A DNA stretch of 64,000 bases from Terriglobia bacterium (GCA_020073085.1 JAIQFV010000007.1:120375-184374); one strand, 5' to 3'; counted from the first letter of the stretch, positions 1 to 9,861 are shown. Notes: generated by a model not told the origin, from the sequence alone. Numbers and translations: made by a program.

Positions 1-396
1 GAGCTTACCTTTTACAAGACCGTCGAAGGAAAGTCAGCGGGAAATCCGAAGGTGAACCCCAAAGAGGAATCCAGTGCGGGGGACAAAGGGAAGAACCAGT
101 CCCCCAGCCGAGCGTCGAAAGAACCTCCAAAGACCGTGCCGGTCACAACGGCGACTGCCGCACCCAACACCATCATCTACCAGGTCGCCGCCTTGTCAAA
201 ATCAGACGATGCTCAAGCCCTGGTGCGCAAGTTGAAGGAAAAAGGATTTCAAGCGTTCCTGGTTTCCCCTCCCGGGGATTCCGGCTCCGACCGGCTGTTT
301 CGAGTTCAAGTGGGGCCATTTTCGGATTCAAATGTGGCGGAACAGATCAAGGCCAAGCTGGTGGCCAATGGGTACACGCCCATTACAAAGAAATAG
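1..396 (+). CDS. SPOR domain-containing protein (5' end lies outside the window)
   Basis: Frame 1 is open from base 1, upstream of the GTG used by the ORF track. The C-terminal segment IYQVAALSKSDDAQALVRKLKEKGFQAF...FRVQVGPFSDSNVAEQIKAKL fits the SPOR repeat pattern. Confidence 0.7.
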   Translation, partial: ELTFYKTVEGKSAGNPKVNPKEESSAGDKGKNQSPSRASKEPPKTVPVTTATAAPNTIIYQVAALSKSDDAQALVRKLKEKGFQAFLVSPPGDSGSDRLFRVQVGPFSDSNVAEQIKAKLVANGYTPITKK

Positions 397-458
397 GATT
401 CTCCGCTCCCGGAATTTTGGGAAGCGCGGCTGACCTGCCCCGTCGCGGGGCTCTCTCC

Positions 459-485
459 CGATCTCAAATTTGAAATTTGAGATCG
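459..485. repeat. Perfect 13+1+13 palindrome CGATCTCAAATTT-G-AAATTTGAGATCG
   Basis: Read directly from the sequence. It lies 63 nt after the SPOR gene stop and about 240 nt upstream of the sigma factor ATG. Confidence 0.9.
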
Positions 486-721
486 CTCAGTTCGATCACT
501 AATAAATTCCCCTGGCCCTGGCCTCCCCGTGTCCTGATTTCCCTCCTCCCTCTGAGGTGGGTTGAAACATTCCGTGGCCGCTGAGTGCTCAGGAGAGCTC
601 TTGCTTGTTTCTGAGGTTCCTGAGGACAAGCGAGGTTTTGCGTAGACGGGCACTGCCCCGTCTGTTGTCACCTCTCTCCATCGAGTATACAATACGAGGC
701 GTTTATCCTAATTCGTCCGAT

Positions 722-1606
722 ATGCCGAATCTGCCGACCGATCAGCAGCTCATCGAATTGCTAGAGCGCAAGCCGCGGGAGGGGTGGCCTCTTTTCCTGG
801 AGACCTACGCACGCCTGATTTATTCGTACTCCCTAAAGTCATTTCATGACATCGACATGGTTTCGGACTTCAATCTTTTTGTTTACGAATCCCTGGCCGC
901 CAACAATTTCAAGAAACTCAAGTCTTTCAAGTTCCGCTGCAAGCTGAGCTCCTATCTCGTGACCCTGCTGGGCAACCTGAAGTCCGATTTCACACGCACC
1001 AAATTCGGGAGGAAAACCCTTCCCGAGAAGATCAAGCAGCTTCCGCAGTTTGCCCAAACCTTGTTCAAATTCCGCTATTGGGAAAACCTGTCCCTCGAAG
1101 AGGCCGCGTTGAAAATGAAATCGGCATTGGGGGACCAGGCGAGCGACGAGGCCATTGAGGGGGCCATGGATCAAATCAATGAATGCCTCAGTATCAAGAT
1201 GCGGGGGCGGATCCAGAACATCAAGCAGCGTAAGGCGCTGGTCGATTACCAGGCGACCACCTCTGCCGCCGCATCTCCCGCCCTGGATCCCGACCCCATG
1301 ATGCAATTGCCGGACTTGTCGCTGAATCCGGAGGTTCTTCTTCATCAGTTCGAGAGAGAGGAGCGGTTTGTAAAGCTGGTGGGCGATTTTCAGGAGCTGG
1401 TCGACGCCCTCCCGTACCAGGAACGGCGACTTTTCATGTTGCGATTCGATCAGGGGCTCTCGGCCAAGGAAATCTCCCGAAAGATGAAAATCCACCCGTC
1501 CGAACGGGTATACACCCTGTTGAATCAGATTAAAGATCGCCTCGGGGCCGAATTGCGCCGACAGGGCTATAACGCAAAGATCCTGGAAGATACTTTTGGA
1601 GATTAG
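722..1606 (+). CDS. Sigma-70 family (ECF-like) RNA polymerase sigma factor with an unusually long inter-domain linker
   Basis: The first ATG of the 605..1606 ORF is at 722 (MPNLPTDQQLIELL). There is a region-2-like segment (WPLFLETYARLIYSYSL) and a C-terminal region-4 HTH (LFMLRFDQGLSAKEISRKMKIHPSERVYTLLNQIKDRL). An anti-sigma gene follows. Confidence 0.65.
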   Translation: MPNLPTDQQLIELLERKPREGWPLFLETYARLIYSYSLKSFHDIDMVSDFNLFVYESLAANNFKKLKSFKFRCKLSSYLVTLLGNLKSDFTRTKFGRKTLPEKIKQLPQFAQTLFKFRYWENLSLEEAALKMKSALGDQASDEAIEGAMDQINECLSIKMRGRIQNIKQRKALVDYQATTSAAASPALDPDPMMQLPDLSLNPEVLLHQFEREERFVKLVGDFQELVDALPYQERRLFMLRFDQGLSAKEISRKMKIHPSERVYTLLNQIKDRLGAELRRQGYNAKILEDTFGD

Positions 1607-1736
1607 GCCGAAAGTGCCAGAAATTTCCGTCTAAATGCTTTGGATTAGGAGTGGTACAGGAATTCTCGTGTTGGGGGCGGGCATTTGAAAGCATTGCGTT
1701 TGTCCTGAAGGAGTTAAACGAGAATCTTCACAATTT

Positions 1737-3986
1737 ATGAATTGCATTGACCTCGCGAAGATCGAAGGTTGGCTGAAGGGCGCGGATCCGGACGCCTTGG
1801 ACAGGGAGGCTCTCGCGCACCTGAAAAGCTGCCGAAACTGCCTCCAGAGCCTGAAGATTGCCGTTGCGCTTAAAGCTTCTGCCGCGATCCCCGCTGCGGA
1901 ATCCTATCTTAGCTCCTCTTTACCCTGTGTGGCGCACATCGAGGATGAAGTCCGCCTTGCCTATCTCGACGAGAGCATGGGGGAGGGGGAAAGAGTCGCC
2001 TTTGAAGATCACTTGGGGGGATGCGCAGCCTGCAAACAGGCGCTCCTTGAGTGGGAGTACGAAATAGCCGACCTTGAACAGAGTAAGGTGGAAGTGCCTG
2101 CCTCCCTCCTCGCCAAAGCCCGCCGCGTCGGGGAAACCGAGATCGCTCGGCATGAATCGGCCGGGTGGGTGGAATCATTTCTCAGAGGCTTGTCTGGGGT
2201 CAGTTCGAAAAGGCTGCAGCTACGCTGGGCTGCTGCGCTGGCAATCGTCGTGATTGTCGCCATGACCTCCATTTTCTACTTCCGGTCCCACAACGGAATC
2301 CACCCGAATCAAGTCGCCCGGGTGAATGTAAATGTTCCCCCCTCCACCGGTCAATCGCCGCAAACCCAGGGTTCTGGACAGACGACAGGGAAAGCCGGCG
2401 GAATCGATCCTGGTACGGTTGAACGGATCCAGAATATTCTGAATCAGGTGGAGCGAGCGGCGGATGCCCTGCCCCCGCGGCAGATCCGGCTGAATATCGT
2501 CGATTCCAACGAGTACATTGCCCAGGTTTCGCCCGCAGGGGAGTTGACCCTCTCGACCCAATATATTGCTGCCACCCAGAATGACGATGAATTGGCGTTC
2601 CTGCTGGCACATGAGGTGTCTCATCGCCAACATCCGACGACCTGTATCCTCTCCTTCTCCACTTCACGTGACCAGTCGGCGAAGACGCTCAATTCTTCGG
2701 TGCAGAAGCAGGGGGAACTTCAGGCCGATCGAATGGGGGTATTTCTCGCCTCCGTTGCCGGATACCAGGCGAATGCCGCTGAAAGCCTTCTTGGGCGAAT
2801 CCAGAATATTCCGAATATTTCCGACAATTCTCATCCCGAATTCAATGCTCGTTTGAAAGAAACCGCCGACGAACTGCGTTCCATTGTCCGGTCCGTCGAG
2901 CTTTTCCGGGCCGGTATTTCGTTTTTCAACACTGAGCAGTACAGCAGGTCGGTGGCGGTATTTGAAGCCGTAGCAGCGATATTTCCAAGTCGAGAGGCAC
3001 TCAATGATCTCGGGTTGGCGTATCACAAATTGGCCATGGAGTATTCGCCTCAGAACTGGGGCTTTAAGAAGTCTGTGATTCTTGATCCGGTGGCCCGGGC
3101 GATTGAACCGGTCCGGGAGGATTTGCCGGAGGCCAACTTGTTTACAGAGTTTTTGAACAAGGCGATCGAGAACTACCGACAGGCAATATCGCGGGATCCT
3201 TCCTACGTCGCGGTGCGTATCAACCTTGCGAGTGCGCTGGACGAGGAGGGGGATTATGCAGGGGCCCGCAGGGAACTTGAAGGGGCCCTGAAAATGAACG
3301 CCGCGTCCGAGGAACGGGCAAAGGTCCTGAATAACCTCGCCGTGATTGCAGCGAAGCAATCGCAGTGGGAGGAGGCGTCCGTGCTGTTGCGGCGCTCGGT
3401 CGATGCCGACAGCACATTTCCTGACCCTCACTTTAACCTGGCCCGTGTTTGGGAGTTGCAGGGCAATGCCAAGGATGCGAGCAGTGAATACGGCCGGTAC
3501 GCCCGATTGGCCGAGAACCAGCGGGACGGTTGGCTCCGGATGGCCTATAACAAGTTGAACAAACCCTGGGTGGGAATGGCAGCAGAACCTTCAGAGGTCC
3601 TTCCAAAGCTGGGACGGGTCCAACTGGGAGCTTCTCTGAGGGTGATCTCGAAGGCACTGGGAGCGCCCGCCGTGACCTGGCAGCTCAAGACCCCCACACA
3701 TTTTGACGTCTTTGTCAGCCTTTATGAGGCTTCTGGCCTGCTGGTTTCAGGCTCCGAGGACGTCATTGACTTTGTTCAAACCACGTCCGCCTATTCGGGG
3801 ACCGATCCTGCCAATCAGCTCTCCCTCGGCATGACCCGCGACGAGTTGGCCACCCGGCTTCGGAATGCGACGCGGGTGCCCGTCTCCACCACCCGCGAAG
3901 GCTACATCAACTTCGGACGTGGCTTGGGGATCAACTTTCGCAACGAGAAAGTTGATACCTGGTACATCTTCGAACCCATCGTCTGA
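1737..3986 (+). CDS. Membrane anti-sigma factor with tandem zf-HC2 motifs, fused to a periplasmic BepA-like M48 peptidase and TPR domain
   Basis: Two HxxxCxxC motifs are present (HLKSCRNC, HLGGCAAC). One TM helix (AAALAIVVIVAMTSIFYF) follows. Then come HEVSH plus ELQADRMG (M48 zinc site pattern) and several TPR-like repeats. Confidence 0.7.
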   Translation: MNCIDLAKIEGWLKGADPDALDREALAHLKSCRNCLQSLKIAVALKASAAIPAAESYLSSSLPCVAHIEDEVRLAYLDESMGEGERVAFEDHLGGCAACKQALLEWEYEIADLEQSKVEVPASLLAKARRVGETEIARHESAGWVESFLRGLSGVSSKRLQLRWAAALAIVVIVAMTSIFYFRSHNGIHPNQVARVNVNVPPSTGQSPQTQGSGQTTGKAGGIDPGTVERIQNILNQVERAADALPPRQIRLNIVDSNEYIAQVSPAGELTLSTQYIAATQNDDELAFLLAHEVSHRQHPTTCILSFSTSRDQSAKTLNSSVQKQGELQADRMGVFLASVAGYQANAAESLLGRIQNIPNISDNSHPEFNARLKETADELRSIVRSVELFRAGISFFNTEQYSRSVAVFEAVAAIFPSREALNDLGLAYHKLAMEYSPQNWGFKKSVILDPVARAIEPVREDLPEANLFTEFLNKAIENYRQAISRDPSYVAVRINLASALDEEGDYAGARRELEGALKMNAASEERAKVLNNLAVIAAKQSQWEEASVLLRRSVDADSTFPDPHFNLARVWELQGNAKDASSEYGRYARLAENQRDGWLRMAYNKLNKPWVGMAAEPSEVLPKLGRVQLGASLRVISKALGAPAVTWQLKTPTHFDVFVSLYEASGLLVSGSEDVIDFVQTTSAYSGTDPANQLSLGMTRDELATRLRNATRVPVSTTREGYINFGRGLGINFRNEKVDTWYIFEPIV

Positions 3987-4170
3987 TTTCAACCCTCAAA
4001 GCACGATTCGCCCGCCGCCCCTTGATGTGTGACCTCGGAAGTCCCCGCTTGCAGCCACCCCGGAGCAGCACGCGAGACGGCCCCGGCTCTCAGATCTGAG
4101 ATTTCAGCGGCAGACAGCGGCCCGACGTGAATGGTCACAAGCTTCTTCAGGGACGCGGGCCGCGCGTCGG

Positions 4171-4200
4171 TTGACACCCATCATTCCTCTAGGCTATAGT
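4171..4200 (+). promoter_or_regulatory. Candidate sigma-70 promoter (TTGACA-N18-TATAGT) upstream of pgsA
   Basis: TTGACA lies at 4171..4176 and TATAGT at 4195..4200, about 90 nt upstream of the pgsA ATG. Confidence 0.45.
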
Positions 4201-4291
4201 CAGGTTCGGCATAATTGAGCGGCGCGTCAACACTCGTCCCTGACTCAGCATTAAACCCCTTAAAGTTGCATTTTGCTCTGATTCGGCCAGC

Positions 4292-4927
4292 ATGAACCTT
4301 CCTATTGCACTAACACTCTCGCGAATTTTTCTGGTCCCCGTCGTGGTGGTGGTATTGCTCTCCAGCCGATTCCCGATCTTTCCGGACCTGTACGCCCAGT
4401 ATCAGGAGTTCATCGCGGTCACGCTTTTTCTGGCGGCGGCCATTACCGATTCTCTCGACGGCTATTTTGCGCGGAAGCGGGGCCAAGTCACGACGCTGGG
4501 AATTCTTCTCGATCCCATTGCGGACAAACTCCTGATCTCCGCCGCCCTCATCTCCCTGGTGAAGACGGTCCCGTGGGTCCCCGCCTGGTTGGTGGTATTG
4601 ATTATCGGTCGTGAATTTGTCGTGTCCGGCCTTAGGAACATCGCCTCCGCGGAAGGGTTCACGATTGATGCGTCGGAATTGGGGAAGATCAAAATGATCC
4701 TCCAGGTGATCGCGATTACGCTGATCATCATCGGGAGCAAGCACAAGAACTTTGAGCTGTTGGGACGGGTGGCGCTCTATCTGGTGGGGTTCTTTGCCGT
4801 GGTTTCCGCGGTCCAGTATTTCCGCCGGTTCTGGGGCAAAGTGGACAGCAGTATCAAGGAGCGTCAGCGTCGTCGCCGCTCGATCCTGCTTCGCCGAAAG
4901 ATGAGACGGGATGTGGAAGTTAAGTAA
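4292..4927 (+). CDS. pgsA: CDP-diacylglycerol--glycerol-3-phosphate 3-phosphatidyltransferase
   Basis: CDP-alcohol phosphatidyltransferase motif DSLDGYFARKRGQVTTLGILLDPIADKLL. The protein is multi-TM. Confidence 0.9.
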   Translation: MNLPIALTLSRIFLVPVVVVVLLSSRFPIFPDLYAQYQEFIAVTLFLAAAITDSLDGYFARKRGQVTTLGILLDPIADKLLISAALISLVKTVPWVPAWLVVLIIGREFVVSGLRNIASAEGFTIDASELGKIKMILQVIAITLIIIGSKHKNFELLGRVALYLVGFFAVVSAVQYFRRFWGKVDSSIKERQRRRRSILLRRKMRRDVEVK

Positions 4928-5471
4928 CGAAGATCAGGCTTTTCTGCTCAGGCTCGCGCGGAAGACGATTTCCGACCATCTTCACAATCAGCCCCTGTCC
5001 CCTCCCGAACCGCTCCCCGTCGGTCCCCTGCTCGAGAAGTGTGGTGCCTTTGTGACCCTGACCCAGCATAACGAGCTCCGCGGGTGCATCGGTTACACCG
5101 CTGCTCTGAAACCGCTCTTCGAGACGGTCATGGATTGTGCCATTTCCGCAGCCACCCGTGATCCGCGGTTCGTCCCGTTGAAGGCGGAGGACCTTGCGCG
5201 CACCCACATTGAGATTTCAGTGCTTTCACCCATGTTTGAGGTCAAGGACGTGAATGAAATTGAGGCGGGAAAGCACGGTCTTATGATTTCACGAGGCAAC
5301 CGGCGGGGCCTGCTCCTCCCGCAGGTCGCTACTGAATACAACCTCAACCGGGAGAAATTCCTGGACCAGACTTGCATGAAAGCAGGACTGCCTCCGAAGT
5401 CCTGGAAGGAGCCCGGGACACGCATCGAGGCGTTCACCGCGTTCGTATTCGGTGAACCCGGAATAGAATAA
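4911..5471 (+). CDS. AMMECR1 domain protein
   Basis: Contains the LRGCIGY motif and DPRFVPL. The ATG at 4911 overlaps the pgsA end by 17 nt. Confidence 0.85.
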   Translation: MWKLSNEDQAFLLRLARKTISDHLHNQPLSPPEPLPVGPLLEKCGAFVTLTQHNELRGCIGYTAALKPLFETVMDCAISAATRDPRFVPLKAEDLARTHIEISVLSPMFEVKDVNEIEAGKHGLMISRGNRRGLLLPQVATEYNLNREKFLDQTCMKAGLPPKSWKEPGTRIEAFTAFVFGEPGIE

Positions 5472-5654
5472 GTCTCGGGAATTTCACCCCCCTCCGCAAT
5501 TGCCCTGAATTCCGAAATCAAGAAACACGAGGTGGGTGTCTTCGATTACCTCGGTAATCCAAAATCCAGGCTTGAGGGGAGGCCACCCTTCCGAGGAAGG
5601 TCGCGGGGGTGGGTGGTTGTTTTGATGCAGGCAGAATGAGTCTGTTGCGATCGT

Positions 5655-7673
5655 TTATTTGAATTCATCGGCCGATTCCTTGTAAGGTTGGGCCATGTAC
5701 TTCCTCGCCTCCTCCTGAGCGCCTTGGGTATTGTCGTTGGTGTCGATGGCCTTTCGATATTCCTGGACGGCGCGTTCTCTCTGGCCCAGGGCATCATAGA
5801 CCTTCCCCAGGTTGATGTGGCTGAACACCTCTACCCACTTCGGATCCAAATCCCCATTGAGAGCCTCGCGGAAGGCATTGGCCGCAGAGTTGTAGTTTCG
5901 CTGGGCCAAAAATGCCTCACCGATCCGAAAATGTGCCAGGGAATTATGTTTGTCGAGGTCCAAGGCCTTTTTGTACGCATCCACAGCCTCGACGTACTCG
6001 CCCTGATCGTAGAGCTCCTTGCCCCGTTGAATCGCGGTCAGGATACGGGTCTTCGCATCGTAGCGGAGGAGGCGGTGATGAGGGTCGAGGTCCACTCGCA
6101 CCGGTTGGCCGAAGGTTTCGATTTCGAAGTCCGAGCTGGTGCCGGACAATTCCACGGTCTTTGACTCGGGTTTCCCTTGCGTTTCGATGGAGACTTCCAC
6201 CGGCATTCGCAGCGTGTCCATGTCCTGTTCCACGTGTCCTTGCACCCGGAATCCCTTCTGAGTCCGGAAGACCGTATATTTCAGTCGAAAATCCGGCGCC
6301 CCTGTCGAAAGGACCCATTCCGCGAAAAAGTAAGTCAGATCCTGGGCTGTCACCTGTTCAACCACCGATTTGAAATCGGCCGTGGTGACGGGCTGATAGG
6401 CAAATTTGGTTGCAAAGGTCTGGAGCGCCGTCGAGAACTTGGTGTCGCCAATAAGATAGCGCAGCATGTGCAGGACAACGGCGCCCTTGTATTGCACCAC
6501 CGAGCGATATTCGTCCGTCTCCTCGGTCAACCGGCCGGCATTCGAGATGGAAGCTGCACTCTCGTGCACCAGGGCCTTGATGCTGAGATCCTTCATCTCG
6601 TCCTCATAAGCGCCTTCGCCCGCATAGTTTTCCATGAACAAGGCCGCGGAATAGCTCGCAAACCCTTCGCTGAGCCAGTAGTCGCTCTTGAAGCGCGGGT
6701 TGAGCCGAAGACCCCACCACTGGTGCCCAATTTCATGGGCGAGGAGTCGGTAATTTACCTTCGTGCTCAAGGTCCGGCGGGCCAGCAAAGTCAGTCCCGG
6801 TGCCGAGTAGCCTCCCACCGTGGAGTCGTCAATCTCCGCAATGGAATAACTGGCGAACGGATACAGCGAGAAACGGGTGTTGTAAAACTCAATGATCTTG
6901 CCGGCCATTTCCCCGTAATCTTTCGCCAGTTTTGCGTTCGACTCGCTGAGGTAAAGGGTGACGGGAATGGATTCGGTTTGGACCGTAGTCTGCACGTATT
7001 TCCCTGCGGCCACGGTGAACGGGAACTGTTGCCCGTCTGCCTGCCAATGAAACACATCCTCCCGGGCTCCCTTATCCACTCCCGTCAACTTCCCCTGAGA
7101 AACCACGACGATCCCCTTGGGAACTGTCAGGTTCAGCTGAACCGCAGCACGATCAAAGTTGTAGCCGTTCATCGGCACCCAGAAGGAGCGCGCCAATAGA
7201 TACGAGCCCGCCTCATCGATGTTGGCAAGCTTCACGTCTTCGACCGGGCTGCGGTCGGATTTGTTCAAAGTGCCGTGATACTCAAAAACCAGTGAGCCTT
7301 CTTGCGGCTTGCTGAGCGGCGCGTCGAGATCGACTGACAGCTTGGAGGTATCGACATCCTGGTTGAATCGAACCGGTCGATTCTTTTCATCCAGGACATG
7401 GGCCGGCGAGAGATTGGCGTTAAAATCAAACTCCAGATGTGAGATATCGCTCTCGAGGGCGGCAAACTGTATTTTGACCTTCGCCTCGAGTTGGTGTGTG
7501 CCGGGGTTGAGCGAGGCATCGATGACGTAACTCTTGATGTCGATTCGCCCCCGCGGATCGGCCACCTCCTTGGCGTTCATCAGGGCGGCCCCCTGGAAAC
7601 AGAGGGAGAGACAGACTGCTGCCATCGCGCGCTCATGCCACAATCGATTCAAAAACATGGACCCTTCCTTCAT
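5655..7673 (-). CDS. M1 family metallopeptidase (aminopeptidase N-like) with C-terminal TPR repeats
   Basis: Contains HEIGHQWWG plus WLSEGFASY (gluzincin motif), an N-terminal signal-like segment and TPR-like repeats at the C-terminus. The start overlaps the lpxB stop by 4 nt. Confidence 0.85.
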   Translation of the reverse strand: MKEGSMFLNRLWHERAMAAVCLSLCFQGAALMNAKEVADPRGRIDIKSYVIDASLNPGTHQLEAKVKIQFAALESDISHLEFDFNANLSPAHVLDEKNRPVRFNQDVDTSKLSVDLDAPLSKPQEGSLVFEYHGTLNKSDRSPVEDVKLANIDEAGSYLLARSFWVPMNGYNFDRAAVQLNLTVPKGIVVVSQGKLTGVDKGAREDVFHWQADGQQFPFTVAAGKYVQTTVQTESIPVTLYLSESNAKLAKDYGEMAGKIIEFYNTRFSLYPFASYSIAEIDDSTVGGYSAPGLTLLARRTLSTKVNYRLLAHEIGHQWWGLRLNPRFKSDYWLSEGFASYSAALFMENYAGEGAYEDEMKDLSIKALVHESAASISNAGRLTEETDEYRSVVQYKGAVVLHMLRYLIGDTKFSTALQTFATKFAYQPVTTADFKSVVEQVTAQDLTYFFAEWVLSTGAPDFRLKYTVFRTQKGFRVQGHVEQDMDTLRMPVEVSIETQGKPESKTVELSGTSSDFEIETFGQPVRVDLDPHHRLLRYDAKTRILTAIQRGKELYDQGEYVEAVDAYKKALDLDKHNSLAHFRIGEAFLAQRNYNSAANAFREALNGDLDPKWVEVFSHINLGKVYDALGQRERAVQEYRKAIDTNDNTQGAQEEARKYMAQPYKESADEFK

Positions 7674-8902
7674 TCCGGAGGACCCGACACTACCACGGCC
7701 GGCTCCAGAGTCACCTGCTTGGATTCAACTTTACCCGTTTGAGTTTCCAGATGGGACAAAACAATTTGAGCCGCCTTCTCCATGGGTGAATGCCCCGTCG
7801 AAAGAATTGCCCTCAGGGCGGCTACCCCCTCAATCATGGTCTGGCGTGCGGCACGGTCATCGAGCAGCTTCAGAACTTCCCTTTCCAGGACCCGGGATGA
7901 AAAATCTGACTGGTAAAGCTCGGGGACCACCCCTCGCCTCAAAATCAAATTTACAAGACAGTAGTAATCGACGTCAATCAGCTTTTGCCCGAGCCACCAG
8001 CTCAGGGGGGCCACTTTGTACACGCAGATGAGGGGCACCTCCAGGAGCGCCGCCTCAAGGGTAGCTGTCCCCGAGGAGACCACCGCCATGTTGGAATACT
8101 TCATGATCTCGCGGGTGTACCCCTCGATCACTTTCACCGGGGCGACCTGATTCCCCGCGCGCTGCCATTTTTCGATTCCCCGCACAATGAACGATCTCCC
8201 CACCGTTGTTGAAGCGGCCAGAAAAAACTGGATTTCGGGCCGGTTCGAGTGAAGGCGCATTACCGTGTCCAGGATGGGAAAAAGATTATGCCGGATCTCG
8301 TTTTTGCGGCTCCCCGGCAACAGGGCCACGCGCGGACGGTCGGGATCAATTTCAAACCGTAAGAATAACTCCTCCTGCCCGCATACTACCTCCAGCATTT
8401 CGACCAGCGGATGGCCAACGTATTTGGCTGGAATGCCCATGTGGTCGTAGAACCGCTTCTCAAAAGGAAGAATGCAGATCATCTCGTCGATCAATTTTCG
8501 CAGGACTTTGAGCCGGCCTCGACGCCAGGCCCAGAATTGCGGGCTGATGAAATAAACGATGTGCACGCCGAGGGATTTCAGACGAGCGGCCAGCCGGATA
8601 TTGAAATCCGGGAAATCCACCAGTATCACCAGGTCGGGTTTCCTCCGTTCTGCCGCCGCTAGAATTTTCAGAAATCCGTCAAAAAGAAATTCCAAATGGG
8701 ATAGAACTTCAACAAAGCCGTGGACCGATATCTCTTCTACCGTGACGATTGCCTCCACCCCCGCCTGTCGCATCGCCTGCCCGGCGCAGCCAAAGAAAGA
8801 CACGGGCTCCTGCGCCTGCCTTTGAATCTGCCGGACCAGTTGGGCGGCATACATTTCGCCCGAGGCTTCCCCGGCCACGATCAAAATCCCGCGTTCCTTC
8901 AT
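7670..8902 (-). CDS. lpxB: Lipid-A-disaccharide synthase
   Basis: N-terminal ILIVAGEASGEMYAAQLVRQI and the overall GT19 pattern. I moved the start to the ATG at 8902 (MKERGILIV), which avoids overlap with the upstream gene. Confidence 0.9.
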   Translation of the reverse strand: MKERGILIVAGEASGEMYAAQLVRQIQRQAQEPVSFFGCAGQAMRQAGVEAIVTVEEISVHGFVEVLSHLEFLFDGFLKILAAAERRKPDLVILVDFPDFNIRLAARLKSLGVHIVYFISPQFWAWRRGRLKVLRKLIDEMICILPFEKRFYDHMGIPAKYVGHPLVEMLEVVCGQEELFLRFEIDPDRPRVALLPGSRKNEIRHNLFPILDTVMRLHSNRPEIQFFLAASTTVGRSFIVRGIEKWQRAGNQVAPVKVIEGYTREIMKYSNMAVVSSGTATLEAALLEVPLICVYKVAPLSWWLGQKLIDVDYYCLVNLILRRGVVPELYQSDFSSRVLEREVLKLLDDRAARQTMIEGVAALRAILSTGHSPMEKAAQIVLSHLETQTGKVESKQVTLEPAVVVSGPPE

Positions 8903-8958
8903 GAATCCAGCCTGTCTTTCCTGCTCTACTCCGGCGGGGGTCTTCCCCCGACTCCCCT

Positions 8959-9861
8959 TCAATTGTAGAGGGCCGGTTCGCCTTCCGGACGTGTCTTCCA
9001 CCGACGATGAACCCACAACCACTGGTCGGGATGCATCCGGATCTTCTCCTCGAGAATCCGATTGAAACGGGCAGTGTTGCTAACCACATCGGCCTGAAAA
9101 TCTCCCGTATCCTCCAAGGCCACCGGAGGCTCAAACCGGAGACGATGCTTCTTGATTTGGTCGTCCCAGATCAGCAGTCCGGGGACTACGGCAGCCCCGG
9201 TGCGCATTGCCAGGGTGGCCAGCCCGGCCGTGGTCGATGCGGGAATCCCGAAGAAATCCGCAAACACCCCCTCCTCACGGGAAGCATTCTGGTCGATCAG
9301 TATGCCCACCGCTTCGTTCTGACGCAACGCCCGAAGGACCTCGCGCATGGAATTGCGCTTGTCGATTCCGACGTTGCCCGCCAACTGACGGTAACCCATA
9401 ATCAGGGCGTCAACCCGCGGATTGTCGAGAGGCCGAACCAGGAACTTGAGAGGATGCCCATAGACCGAGTGCGCGAACGAAGCCAGTTCCCAGGCCCCAA
9501 AATGAGCCGTCATGATCAGGATACCCTTCCCTCGCTTCTTCGCCTCGGCAAAATTCTCAAATCCGTCGTAAACAACAATCCGATCAATGCCCTTCAGGGT
9601 AAACTTGGGAAACTGGCTGAATTCTGCAAGCAAACGGGAGAGATTCCTAAAGACACCCTTCACAATCCGGCGATGCTCAGCTCCGGAAAGGTGAGGAAGC
9701 GCAAGGCTCAGATTGTAATAAGCAATGTGCCGCAGCCGTCCGGCAAAACAATACCCCAGCCGCCCGATCATGCGGGTGACGAACTTTGCGCAAGGCCGAG
9801 GCATCCAGGTTAGGGACTTCAACAGCGTCGCGGCCAGAAAAAATTCGAGTCGTTCGCGCAA
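8959..9861 (-). CDS. Lipid A biosynthesis acyltransferase (LpxL/HtrB family)
   Basis: 300 aa with an N-terminal anchor. MTAHFGAWELA (HX4E-type acyltransferase motif) and GILIDQN are present. It lies directly upstream of lpxB. Confidence 0.8.
   Translation of the reverse strand: MRERLEFFLAATLLKSLTWMPRPCAKFVTRMIGRLGYCFAGRLRHIAYYNLSLALPHLSGAEHRRIVKGVFRNLSRLLAEFSQFPKFTLKGIDRIVVYDGFENFAEAKKRGKGILIMTAHFGAWELASFAHSVYGHPLKFLVRPLDNPRVDALIMGYRQLAGNVGIDKRNSMREVLRALRQNEAVGILIDQNASREEGVFADFFGIPASTTAGLATLAMRTGAAVVPGLLIWDDQIKKHRLRFEPPVALEDTGDFQADVVSNTARFNRILEEKIRMHPDQWLWVHRRWKTRPEGEPALYN

Follow-up and report, generated by a model that had tools for sequence, protein, structure and literature searches.

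A tandem-ZAS anti-sigma factor with a BepA-like M48 protease–TPR module, encoded beside a three-domain ECF-like sigma factor in uncultured Terriglobia

The window analysed here, a 64,000-nucleotide stretch of DNA from a Terriglobia bacterium (GCA_020073085.1, JAIQFV010000007.1:120375-184374), encodes a sigma-70-family protein and, directly downstream, an anti-sigma factor whose predicted extracytoplasmic part is itself an M48-type protease module. The sigma gene occupies 722..1606 (plus strand, as do all features described for the pair; ATG start at 722, stop at 1606) and encodes a three-domain protein of 294 residues that resembles the extracytoplasmic function (ECF) sigma factors. The fusion gene occupies 1737..3986 and encodes 749 residues in which two tandem zinc-binding anti-sigma (ZAS) modules and a transmembrane helix precede an M48 zinc metalloprotease domain, a tetratricopeptide repeat (TPR) region and a β-rich C-terminal domain. 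The two genes probably constitute a sigma/anti-sigma unit that senses the state of the envelope through regulated proteolysis, the latent protease serving as the sensor. In every locus examined the fusion gene lies directly downstream of the sigma gene on the same strand, and the sigma and anti-sigma clusters are found on the same contigs, with 14 sigma orthologues (68–91% identity) and 12 full-length orthologues of the fusion protein (51–81% identity). An initial annotation of the window had called 722–3986 a sigma/anti-sigma pair of about 295 and 749 residues; both open reading frames (ORFs) are confirmed and the pairing is borne out by the Sigma70_r4_2 match and the region 2 hhalign alignment (96%) of the first protein, the zf-HC2 match of the second and their conserved adjacency.

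The N-terminal part of the fusion protein contains two zinc modules. ZAS module 1 (residues 1–50, 1737..1886) holds the pattern C3-x24-H28-x3-C32-x2-C35 and ZAS module 2 (residues 63–115, 1923..2081) the pattern C64-x27-H92-x3-C96-x2-C99, the HxxxCxxC copies being HLKSCRNC at residues 28–35 and HLGGCAAC at residues 92–99 and the upstream cysteines, C3 and C64, providing the fourth ligands. All eight zinc-ligand positions are invariant in 13 orthologues of 51–81% identity while the inter-ZAS and juxtamembrane linkers display a mean pairwise identity of ~18%, which excludes a chance origin of the motifs. The zf-HC2 profile matches the second motif (residues 75–99) at 29.9 bits against a cut-off of 22.2 and the first alone at a sub-threshold 14.1 bits. 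The cores of the two modules align with each other (hhalign E 1e-5), and the first motif (H28, C32 and C35) is also invariant when aligned with three unrelated double-ZAS families. The two zf-HC2 motifs picked out in the initial annotation are borne out. The generic NCBIfam anti-sigma model NF052375 matches residues 79–195 (E 1.4e-7). In the AlphaFold2 (AF2) model, ZAS1 comprises only three helices (residues 6–13, 23–31 and 33–49; predicted local distance difference test, pLDDT, 74–78), and ZAS2 forms helices at 70–77, 83–95, 97–115 and 122–140 with moderate confidence. The last of these belongs to a conserved segment after ZAS2 (residues 116–152, 2082..2192) in which P121, G132 and E135 are invariant and E119, V120, K127, A128 and E133 reach 90% conservation or more, making it a candidate for helix IV of class I anti-sigma factors, where the three-helix bundle binds sigma4 and helix IV binds sigma2 (PMC7406223).

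A single transmembrane helix follows at residues 164–186 (2226..2294), the only hydropathy peak above 1.6, modelled as a helix at 163–186. It is the sole hydrophobic helix of the protein (164–182/186), as had been proposed. It is flanked by four Lys/Arg residues on the N-terminal side and two on the other, and leads into a disordered juxtamembrane linker (residues 187–222, 2295..2402; pLDDT 27–35, pairwise identity 18.6%). Of the seven cysteines, six fall within the N-terminal part and occupy zinc-motif positions. Because of the single transmembrane helix, the 4:2 positive-inside bias and the cysteine placement, the N-terminal part is predicted to be cytoplasmic and the M48-TPR-β part periplasmic. 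With its motif and profile matches, the helix bundle plus fourth helix of ZAS2 and its adjacency to a sigma gene, the protein presents the features of class I zf-HC2 anti-sigma factors. RsiW, RslA, ChrR and RsrA likewise display HxxxCxxC with an upstream Cys/His, a helix bundle and fourth helix and then a transmembrane segment, and are likewise encoded directly downstream of their sigma genes. In contrast to these, the window protein carries two tandem ZAS modules instead of one, adjoins a three-domain rather than a two-domain sigma factor and has a protease as its extracytoplasmic part.

The M48 domain spans residues 223–376 (2403..2864) and displays HExxH, ExxAD and HPx4R. Peptidase_M48 (PF01435) matches at 38.6 bits against a cut-off of 20.3, in two stretches, and at 44.9 bits when the domain is searched alone, so that both the family profile and the three family motifs are in place. 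HEVSH (292–296), ELQAD (327–331) and HPx4R are invariant in the 13 orthologues, including H292, E293, H296, E327, D331, H366, P367 and R372. The proposed order of M48 followed by TPR is supported by Pfam hidden Markov models (HMMs) above threshold and by these invariant motifs, of which HPx4R had previously gone unlisted. A profile of the domain searched against the PDB retrieved Geobacter 3c37 best (E 1.6e-6, with the three motifs aligned), then minigluzincins and BepA. In BepA, HPx4R forms the autoinhibitory plug, its His being the fourth zinc ligand and its Arg bonding the ExxAD Asp (PMC13655028, 2026). Since the plug residues are all invariant here, a latent, regulatable protease is a reasonable reading, and to judge from the sequence the enzyme would be latent in the resting state.

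The TPR region (residues 377–606, 2865..3554) is matched by several TPR Pfam families over 389–601, with E-values down to 1e-12, and is modelled as helical repeats. Nowhere is the protein more conserved than in a loop of this region at residues 437–468 (3045..3140; NWGFKKSVILDPVARAIEPVREDLP; QNWGFKKSVILDPVARAIEPVREDLPEANLF) with 88% mean pairwise identity and many invariant residues, which AF2 leaves at a pLDDT of ~31 and with no regular structure. Such a loop could act as a pseudo-substrate tethered to the enzyme, as a site of cleavage or as a motif for docking a partner. The C-terminal β-rich domain (residues 607–749, 3555..3983) is modelled as strands with a pLDDT of 75–90. Neither Pfam searches of all 13 members nor a profile search against the PDB produced a credible family for it; the candidates, phosphopantetheine adenylyltransferase (E 0.012) and BamE (in one of 13 members, E 0.093), were discarded. 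The model of the entire protein (pLDDT 69, predicted TM-score, pTM, 0.62; 13-sequence alignment) shows a compact α/β gluzincin domain at 225–376, helical repeats to 606 and a β-rich portion at 620–749. Mean pairwise identity is 48% for ZAS1, 49% for ZAS2, 45% for the helix after it, 65% for M48, 62–76% for TPR and 56% for the C-terminal domain. All regions save the two linkers are under clear constraint.

The fusion protein resembles BepA in the order of its domains and in its fold, yet is no orthologue of BepA. It shares with BepA/YfgC of E. coli (6AIT, 6SAR) the succession of M48 and TPR, HExxH, ExxAD and the HPx4R plug. A Foldseek search against the PDB returned TPR proteins, the sole non-TPR class being full-length BepA (6ait/6sar), with E-values of 1.5e-7 to 2e-7 over 414–442 columns and TM-scores of 0.30–0.38 of the target, values that are low probably because of differing domain orientation. 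Identity to BepA is ~14%. BepA is soluble and periplasmic, with a cleavable signal peptide; in contrast, the M48 domain here comes after a 160-residue cytoplasmic part, the transmembrane helix and the linker, and the conserved TPR loop and the C-terminal β domain are both additional. The initial likening to BepA therefore stands for domain order and fold, and fails at the inner-membrane tether, the extra C-terminal domain and, as detailed below, the equivalog score and the short lid. The direct link from envelope protein quality control to an ECF regulon that the initial annotation drew from this likeness is an inference.

The sigma protein is organised as sigma2, a sigma4-like domain, a linker and sigma4, and its three domains set it apart from canonical two-domain ECF factors. 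Pfam matches region 4 only, through Sigma70_r4_2 at residues 223–260 (43.6 bits against a cut-off of 25.7, E 2.3e-11) and Sigma70_r4 (32 bits against 24.1). The C-terminal piece (residues 201–294, 1322..1603) retains both matches when searched alone (E 7.8e-8 and 6.9e-5, respectively). The region-2-like domain (residues 1–97, 722..1012) was recognised by hhalign, residues 9–101 aligning with region 2 of P0180, an ordinary 209-residue ECF sigma factor with Sigma70_r2, at 96.4% probability (E 1.3e-9, 33% identity); weak matches to AlgU region 2 were also obtained. Regions 2 and 4 of an ECF factor are thus both present, while the short linker that joins them in two-domain ECF factors is replaced by a conserved folded domain plus a linker. 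What the initial annotation had described as a long linker is, at residues 98–165 (1013..1216), this folded middle domain. Its 75% pairwise identity among orthologues compares with 68% for the C-terminal region 4 and 51% for the actual linker, a low-confidence segment at residues 166–200 (1217..1321; pLDDT below 50 for 166–198).

By sequence the middle domain resembles sigma region 4, although it occupies the place where region 3 would sit. It can be aligned with the C-terminal region 4 of the protein itself (hhalign probability 88%, E 2.9e-6, 29% identity over 56 columns), residues 99–156 align with AlgU region 4, and on its own it yields a sub-threshold Sigma70_r4_2 match (E 0.008). A middle-domain profile searched against the PDB placed sigma28 and AlgU region 4 on top, without significance. 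Assignment to sigma region 3 was considered and set aside, as the sequence favours region 4 and the fold search merely puts the domain in the place of region 3. The AF2 model (pLDDT 70.5) comprises three helical blocks with 166–198 disordered, and its best whole-chain Foldseek matches are the three-domain factors SigB, sigma28 and sigmaS, followed by ECF factors. Group 3 factors such as FliA/sigma28 and SigB thus share three helical domains and a similar length with the window protein; in contrast, its regions 2 and 4 are ECF-like by sequence and its middle domain is region-4-like, not region 3. All specific ECF subfamily models and all FliA-family models score far under their cut-offs, and a profile search for distant sigma relatives returned just two ordinary ECF factors, which match region 2.

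Only a few uncultured Acidobacteria from soil and sediment carry the fusion. It forms ~13 protein clusters, all from Terriglobia metagenome-assembled genomes (MAGs); surveyed along the lines the initial annotation had sketched, the gene is present in five of 185,579 GTDB species genomes, all Terriglobia/Acidobacteriota MAGs, and the window sequence itself was found in freshwater-sediment and wetland metagenomes. An exhaustive HMMER search with residues 1–385 against 1.84 billion representatives gave 197 matches. Among the best 150 of these, M48 proteins match the M48 part and anti-sigma proteins the N-terminal part, and the single cluster that spans both is an orthologue. P0064 and P0159, which contain HxxxCxxC and HExxH, lack zf-HC2 and were dismissed as chance co-occurrences of motifs. 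The closest relative devoid of ZAS modules among the matches listed is P0034, a 592-residue protein with an N-terminal hydrophobic segment, M48, TPR and the start of the C-terminal domain, which aligns to residues 224–670 (27% identity, E 6e-36) and lacks the sequence of loop 437–468. The fusion therefore put a double-ZAS/transmembrane head on a pre-existing, stand-alone exported M48-TPR protein. No paper pairing Peptidase_M48 with an anti-sigma factor was found, and those co-mentioning BepA and anti-sigma factors are unrelated; the ZAS-M48-TPR combination is new to the literature searched.

Tandem ZAS modules recur beyond this fusion. At least ten anti-sigma matches carry two or three HxxxCxxC motifs, and in four of them, termed type A (P0037, P0079, P0080 and P0163), the two motifs are 58–69 residues apart, as compared with 64 here. 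Three type A proteins aligned with the window protein match across both ZAS modules and the transmembrane helix, with H28, C32, C35, Y76, D78, R86, H92, C96, C99 and W164 invariant. The N-terminal module is thus homologous; in contrast, the periplasmic parts are unrelated and none contains M48, P0079 and P0080 having another C-terminal region common to both. Type A proteins are uncharacterised and metagenomic and offer no functional precedent. Beside each of the four genes lies an upstream gene of 339–360 residues with no Pfam match on record. Three of the four upstream genes are readable as DNA (L011, L012 and L013), and all three encode divergent, sigma-like proteins. The L011 gene (942–1994, 350 residues) gives weak TIGR02937 and FliA_WhiG matches and is collinear with residues 64–281 of the window sigma protein, and the L013 gene (1802–2884, 360 residues) aligns by hhalign with residues 66–283 (85%, E 6.6e-6). 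Both therefore align over the middle and C-terminal domains, and both give weak FliA_WhiG matches over regions 3–4. The L012 gene (2895–3914, 339 residues) yields no significant alignment with the window sigma protein; its TIGR02937 match (37.9 bits) stretches 255 residues over ~140 model positions, indicating extra length between regions 2 and 4 like that of the window protein. The fourth upstream gene, of 359 residues, lies on a Joint Genome Institute (JGI) contig, and all four immediately precede their double-ZAS anti-sigma genes on metagenomic contigs that are unrelated. The association does not extend to all multi-ZAS anti-sigma factors, as the wider-spaced type B proteins P0051 and P0118 adjoin ECF sigma genes of 196–224 residues.

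The tandem ZAS of type A goes with long sigma-like upstream genes, the M48-TPR protein being one sensor variant, and these genes may form, together with the window sigma factor, an unclassified long-sigma family. It is an attractive hypothesis that the two bundles would face the two region-4-like domains. A bolder proposal, unlikely as a whole, places the locus in an unrecognised class of three-domain ECF-like sigma factors (290–360 residues) in which each region-4-like domain would be capped by a ZAS bundle of its own, and sigma2 covered by the post-ZAS2 helix. The Terriglobia sensor would then be a self-contained latent M48 enzyme which, on meeting a stalled envelope substrate, would start the cascade by cutting itself in response to the signal, so that activation of the protease would be coupled directly to transcription.

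A sigma-70-type promoter, TTGTCA-17 nt-TACAAT (665..693, 10 of 12 consensus matches), lies ~30 nt upstream of the sigma start, and both hexamers are kept in six orthologous loci, unlike the DNA around them. Transcription of the sigma gene thus seems to depend on the housekeeping holoenzyme, so that control of the sigma factor would be mainly post-translational. ECF-type sigma genes are commonly autoregulated, and a housekeeping-type promoter is unusual for one. The spacer between the genes, 130 bp in the window, contains no predicted terminator-like site, and no Rfam match was found in it or in the untranslated regions at E-values up to 1. The 9-mer TCCGTCTAA in this spacer (1626..1634) is identical in six loci, 22–23 nt past the sigma stop. 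As a regulon motif it is not enriched, since 9.3 matches with at most one mismatch would be expected in the window and 11 occur, and as an ECF promoter element it was rejected, its spacing to the upstream A-rich sequence being unfit for a –35/–10 pair. No RNA-seq support for co-transcription was found, the runs holding the sequence being DNA metagenomes only.

In the mechanism considered probable here, the cytoplasmic N-terminal part would hold the sigma factor at the membrane, and the periplasmic M48-TPR-β module would act as the sensor, its protease plugged and inactive at rest. Engagement of an envelope ligand or substrate by the TPR/β module or the protease would open the anti-sigma factor to cleavage in or near the juxtamembrane linker, whether this cut were made by its own M48 domain or by a different protease. 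Intramembrane and cytoplasmic proteolysis would follow and liberate the sigma factor, as happens with RseA and RsiW. As to the ligand, a misassembled outer-membrane component would be the most likely class. The RseA-DegS-RseP and RsiW-PrsW-RasP systems, in which a single-pass anti-sigma factor holding an ECF-type sigma factor undergoes stepwise proteolysis, provide the precedent; they employ a separate site-1 protease and a non-catalytic periplasmic domain, in contrast to the protease domain within the anti-sigma factor here. A second parallel is BlaR1/MecR1 (M56), membrane transducers with a gluzincin domain related to M48 whose activation involves autoproteolysis, and minigluzincin structures (M48/M56 models) weakly match the M48 profile. 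In contrast to the present protein, BlaR1 has a protease facing the cytoplasm and a penicillin-binding domain as its extracellular sensor, and it acts by cleaving a repressor instead of releasing a sigma factor. The 749-residue protein gave no M56 match.

Several observations weigh against this mechanism. The BepA equivalog NF052400 scores 20.2 bits where 570 are required, and its match is limited to 30 residues around HExxH. The counterpart of the α6 lid, from H296 to E327, is 30 residues long as compared with ~60 in BepA, where the membrane-inserting lid lies between HExxH and ExxAD (PMC13655028), and because this segment is of half length activation cannot copy that of BepA. The genes are spaced 114–130 bp apart across loci, without overlap. 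The spacer around the invariant TCCGTCTAA, which an A/T-rich sequence precedes, is otherwise diverged, and neither a regulon nor an autoregulated promoter of ECF type was found. Shared synteny in close relatives may have ancestry alone as its cause. The AF2 models of both proteins are of moderate confidence (pLDDT ~70) and were built from shallow alignments. Lastly, Pfam Sigma70_r2 gives no direct match in the sigma protein, TIGR02937 (sigma70-ECF) matches residues 25–274 just below its cut-off (42.0 bits against 42.9, E 7.2e-11) and one orthologue is named by NCBI merely as a sigma factor-like helix-turn-helix DNA-binding protein. These last three points also favour the reading that there is no sigma/anti-sigma pair at all, the 294-residue protein being a helix-turn-helix DNA-binding regulator that has lost its affinity for RNA polymerase, with some other role for the zinc modules. 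That reading is barely probable, as it is opposed by the region 2 match to a bona fide ECF factor, by whole-chain Foldseek matches that are all sigma factors, by the above-threshold zf-HC2 score of ZAS2 and by the four other double-ZAS families with a long upstream gene, of which the three readable ones are sigma-like.

The remaining alternatives accept the pair and differ in what releases the sigma factor. Thiol oxidation at one or both ZAS modules, as in RsrA, might expel zinc and sigma independently of the periplasmic domain. The two complete, invariant Cys-rich motifs and a weak match to the RsrA model (E 1.9e-5) are in keeping with such a cytoplasmic redox switch, which is nonetheless very improbable: the RsrA score of 24.7 bits is far under the cut-off of 62.5, the large and strongly conserved periplasmic module would be left unexplained, and most membrane-bound ZAS proteins hold structural zinc (PMC7406223). 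Alternatively, the protein could be a quality-control protease first and a regulator second, its ZAS head titrating the sigma factor to gauge the level of intact protease; consumption or degradation of the protease would free the sigma factor and restore expression of the protease or a partner, in a homeostatic manner and not as a signal receptor. The existence of the periplasmic module alone in other organisms (P0034) and its stronger conservation relative to the cytoplasmic part (62–88% against 45–49%) argue for this, and TCCGTCTAA, situated shortly before the anti-sigma gene, might serve sigma-dependent feedback, although it fits no recognisable ECF –35/–10 arrangement. Taken together, this homeostatic role is quite improbable.

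A specific version of the preferred regulated-proteolysis mechanism, unlikely in this form, makes the tethered M48 domain its own site-1 protease, without a separate DegS- or PrsW-like enzyme. Displacement of the plug by a ligand of the TPR/β module would lead to a cut in loop 437–468 or in the juxtamembrane linker, analogous to the autoproteolysis of BlaR1/MecR1. The intact, invariant catalytic and plug motifs, the disordered 36-residue linker between the transmembrane helix and the protease and the location of the highest conservation (88%) in an unstructured TPR loop, as expected of a pseudo-substrate or cleavage site, are consistent with self-cleavage. The loop is, however, equally plausible as a docking site for a partner protein, and its sequence is absent from P0034.

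In envelope-stress systems the sensor, the site-1 protease and the quality-control proteases are normally separate proteins. With a complete, regulatable-looking M48 enzyme inside an anti-sigma factor, engagement or activation of the protease could be converted directly into a transcriptional response. If true, the system would offer a compact natural model for the triggering of M48 plug release, a question only recently opened for BepA (PMC13655028). The recurrence of tandem ZAS modules beside long sigma-like genes points to a geometry of sigma/anti-sigma binding for which present ECF classifications may have no place, and the ECF reclassification paper mentions neither peptidases nor M48. 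Interest would be greater if the self-cleaving sensor or the two-bundle lock were true. As the family is limited to uncultured Terriglobia, practical impact would be limited until expression in a surrogate host.

The surrounding genes relate to envelope biogenesis, a setting suggestive of a functional tie to the sigma pair. Upstream of the sigma gene lies a SPOR-domain gene whose other end is beyond the window start. Downstream are genes for a CDP-alcohol phosphatidyltransferase (pgsA), AMMECR1, an M1 peptidase with TPRs, lpxB, a lipid A acyltransferase and a PMT_2 glycosyltransferase, the names being borrowed from syntenic orthologous loci. Gene order over window positions 1–9861 (SPOR, sigma, anti-sigma, phosphatidyltransferase, AMMECR1, M1 peptidase-TPR on the opposite strand, lpxB, acyltransferase and PMT_2) is fully kept in relatives, including L001/L003, down to 51% anti-sigma identity. 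A near-consensus sigma-70 promoter at 4171–4200 (TTGACA-18-TATAGT, 11 of 12 matches) precedes the phosphatidyltransferase gene, which suggests that the sigma/anti-sigma pair is transcribed separately from the genes after it. The M1 peptidase gene (5655–7673, minus strand, 672 residues), 1.7 kb downstream and kept in the syntenic loci, encodes Peptidase_M1 with C-terminal TPRs, a second TPR-bearing zinc metallopeptidase in the neighbourhood.

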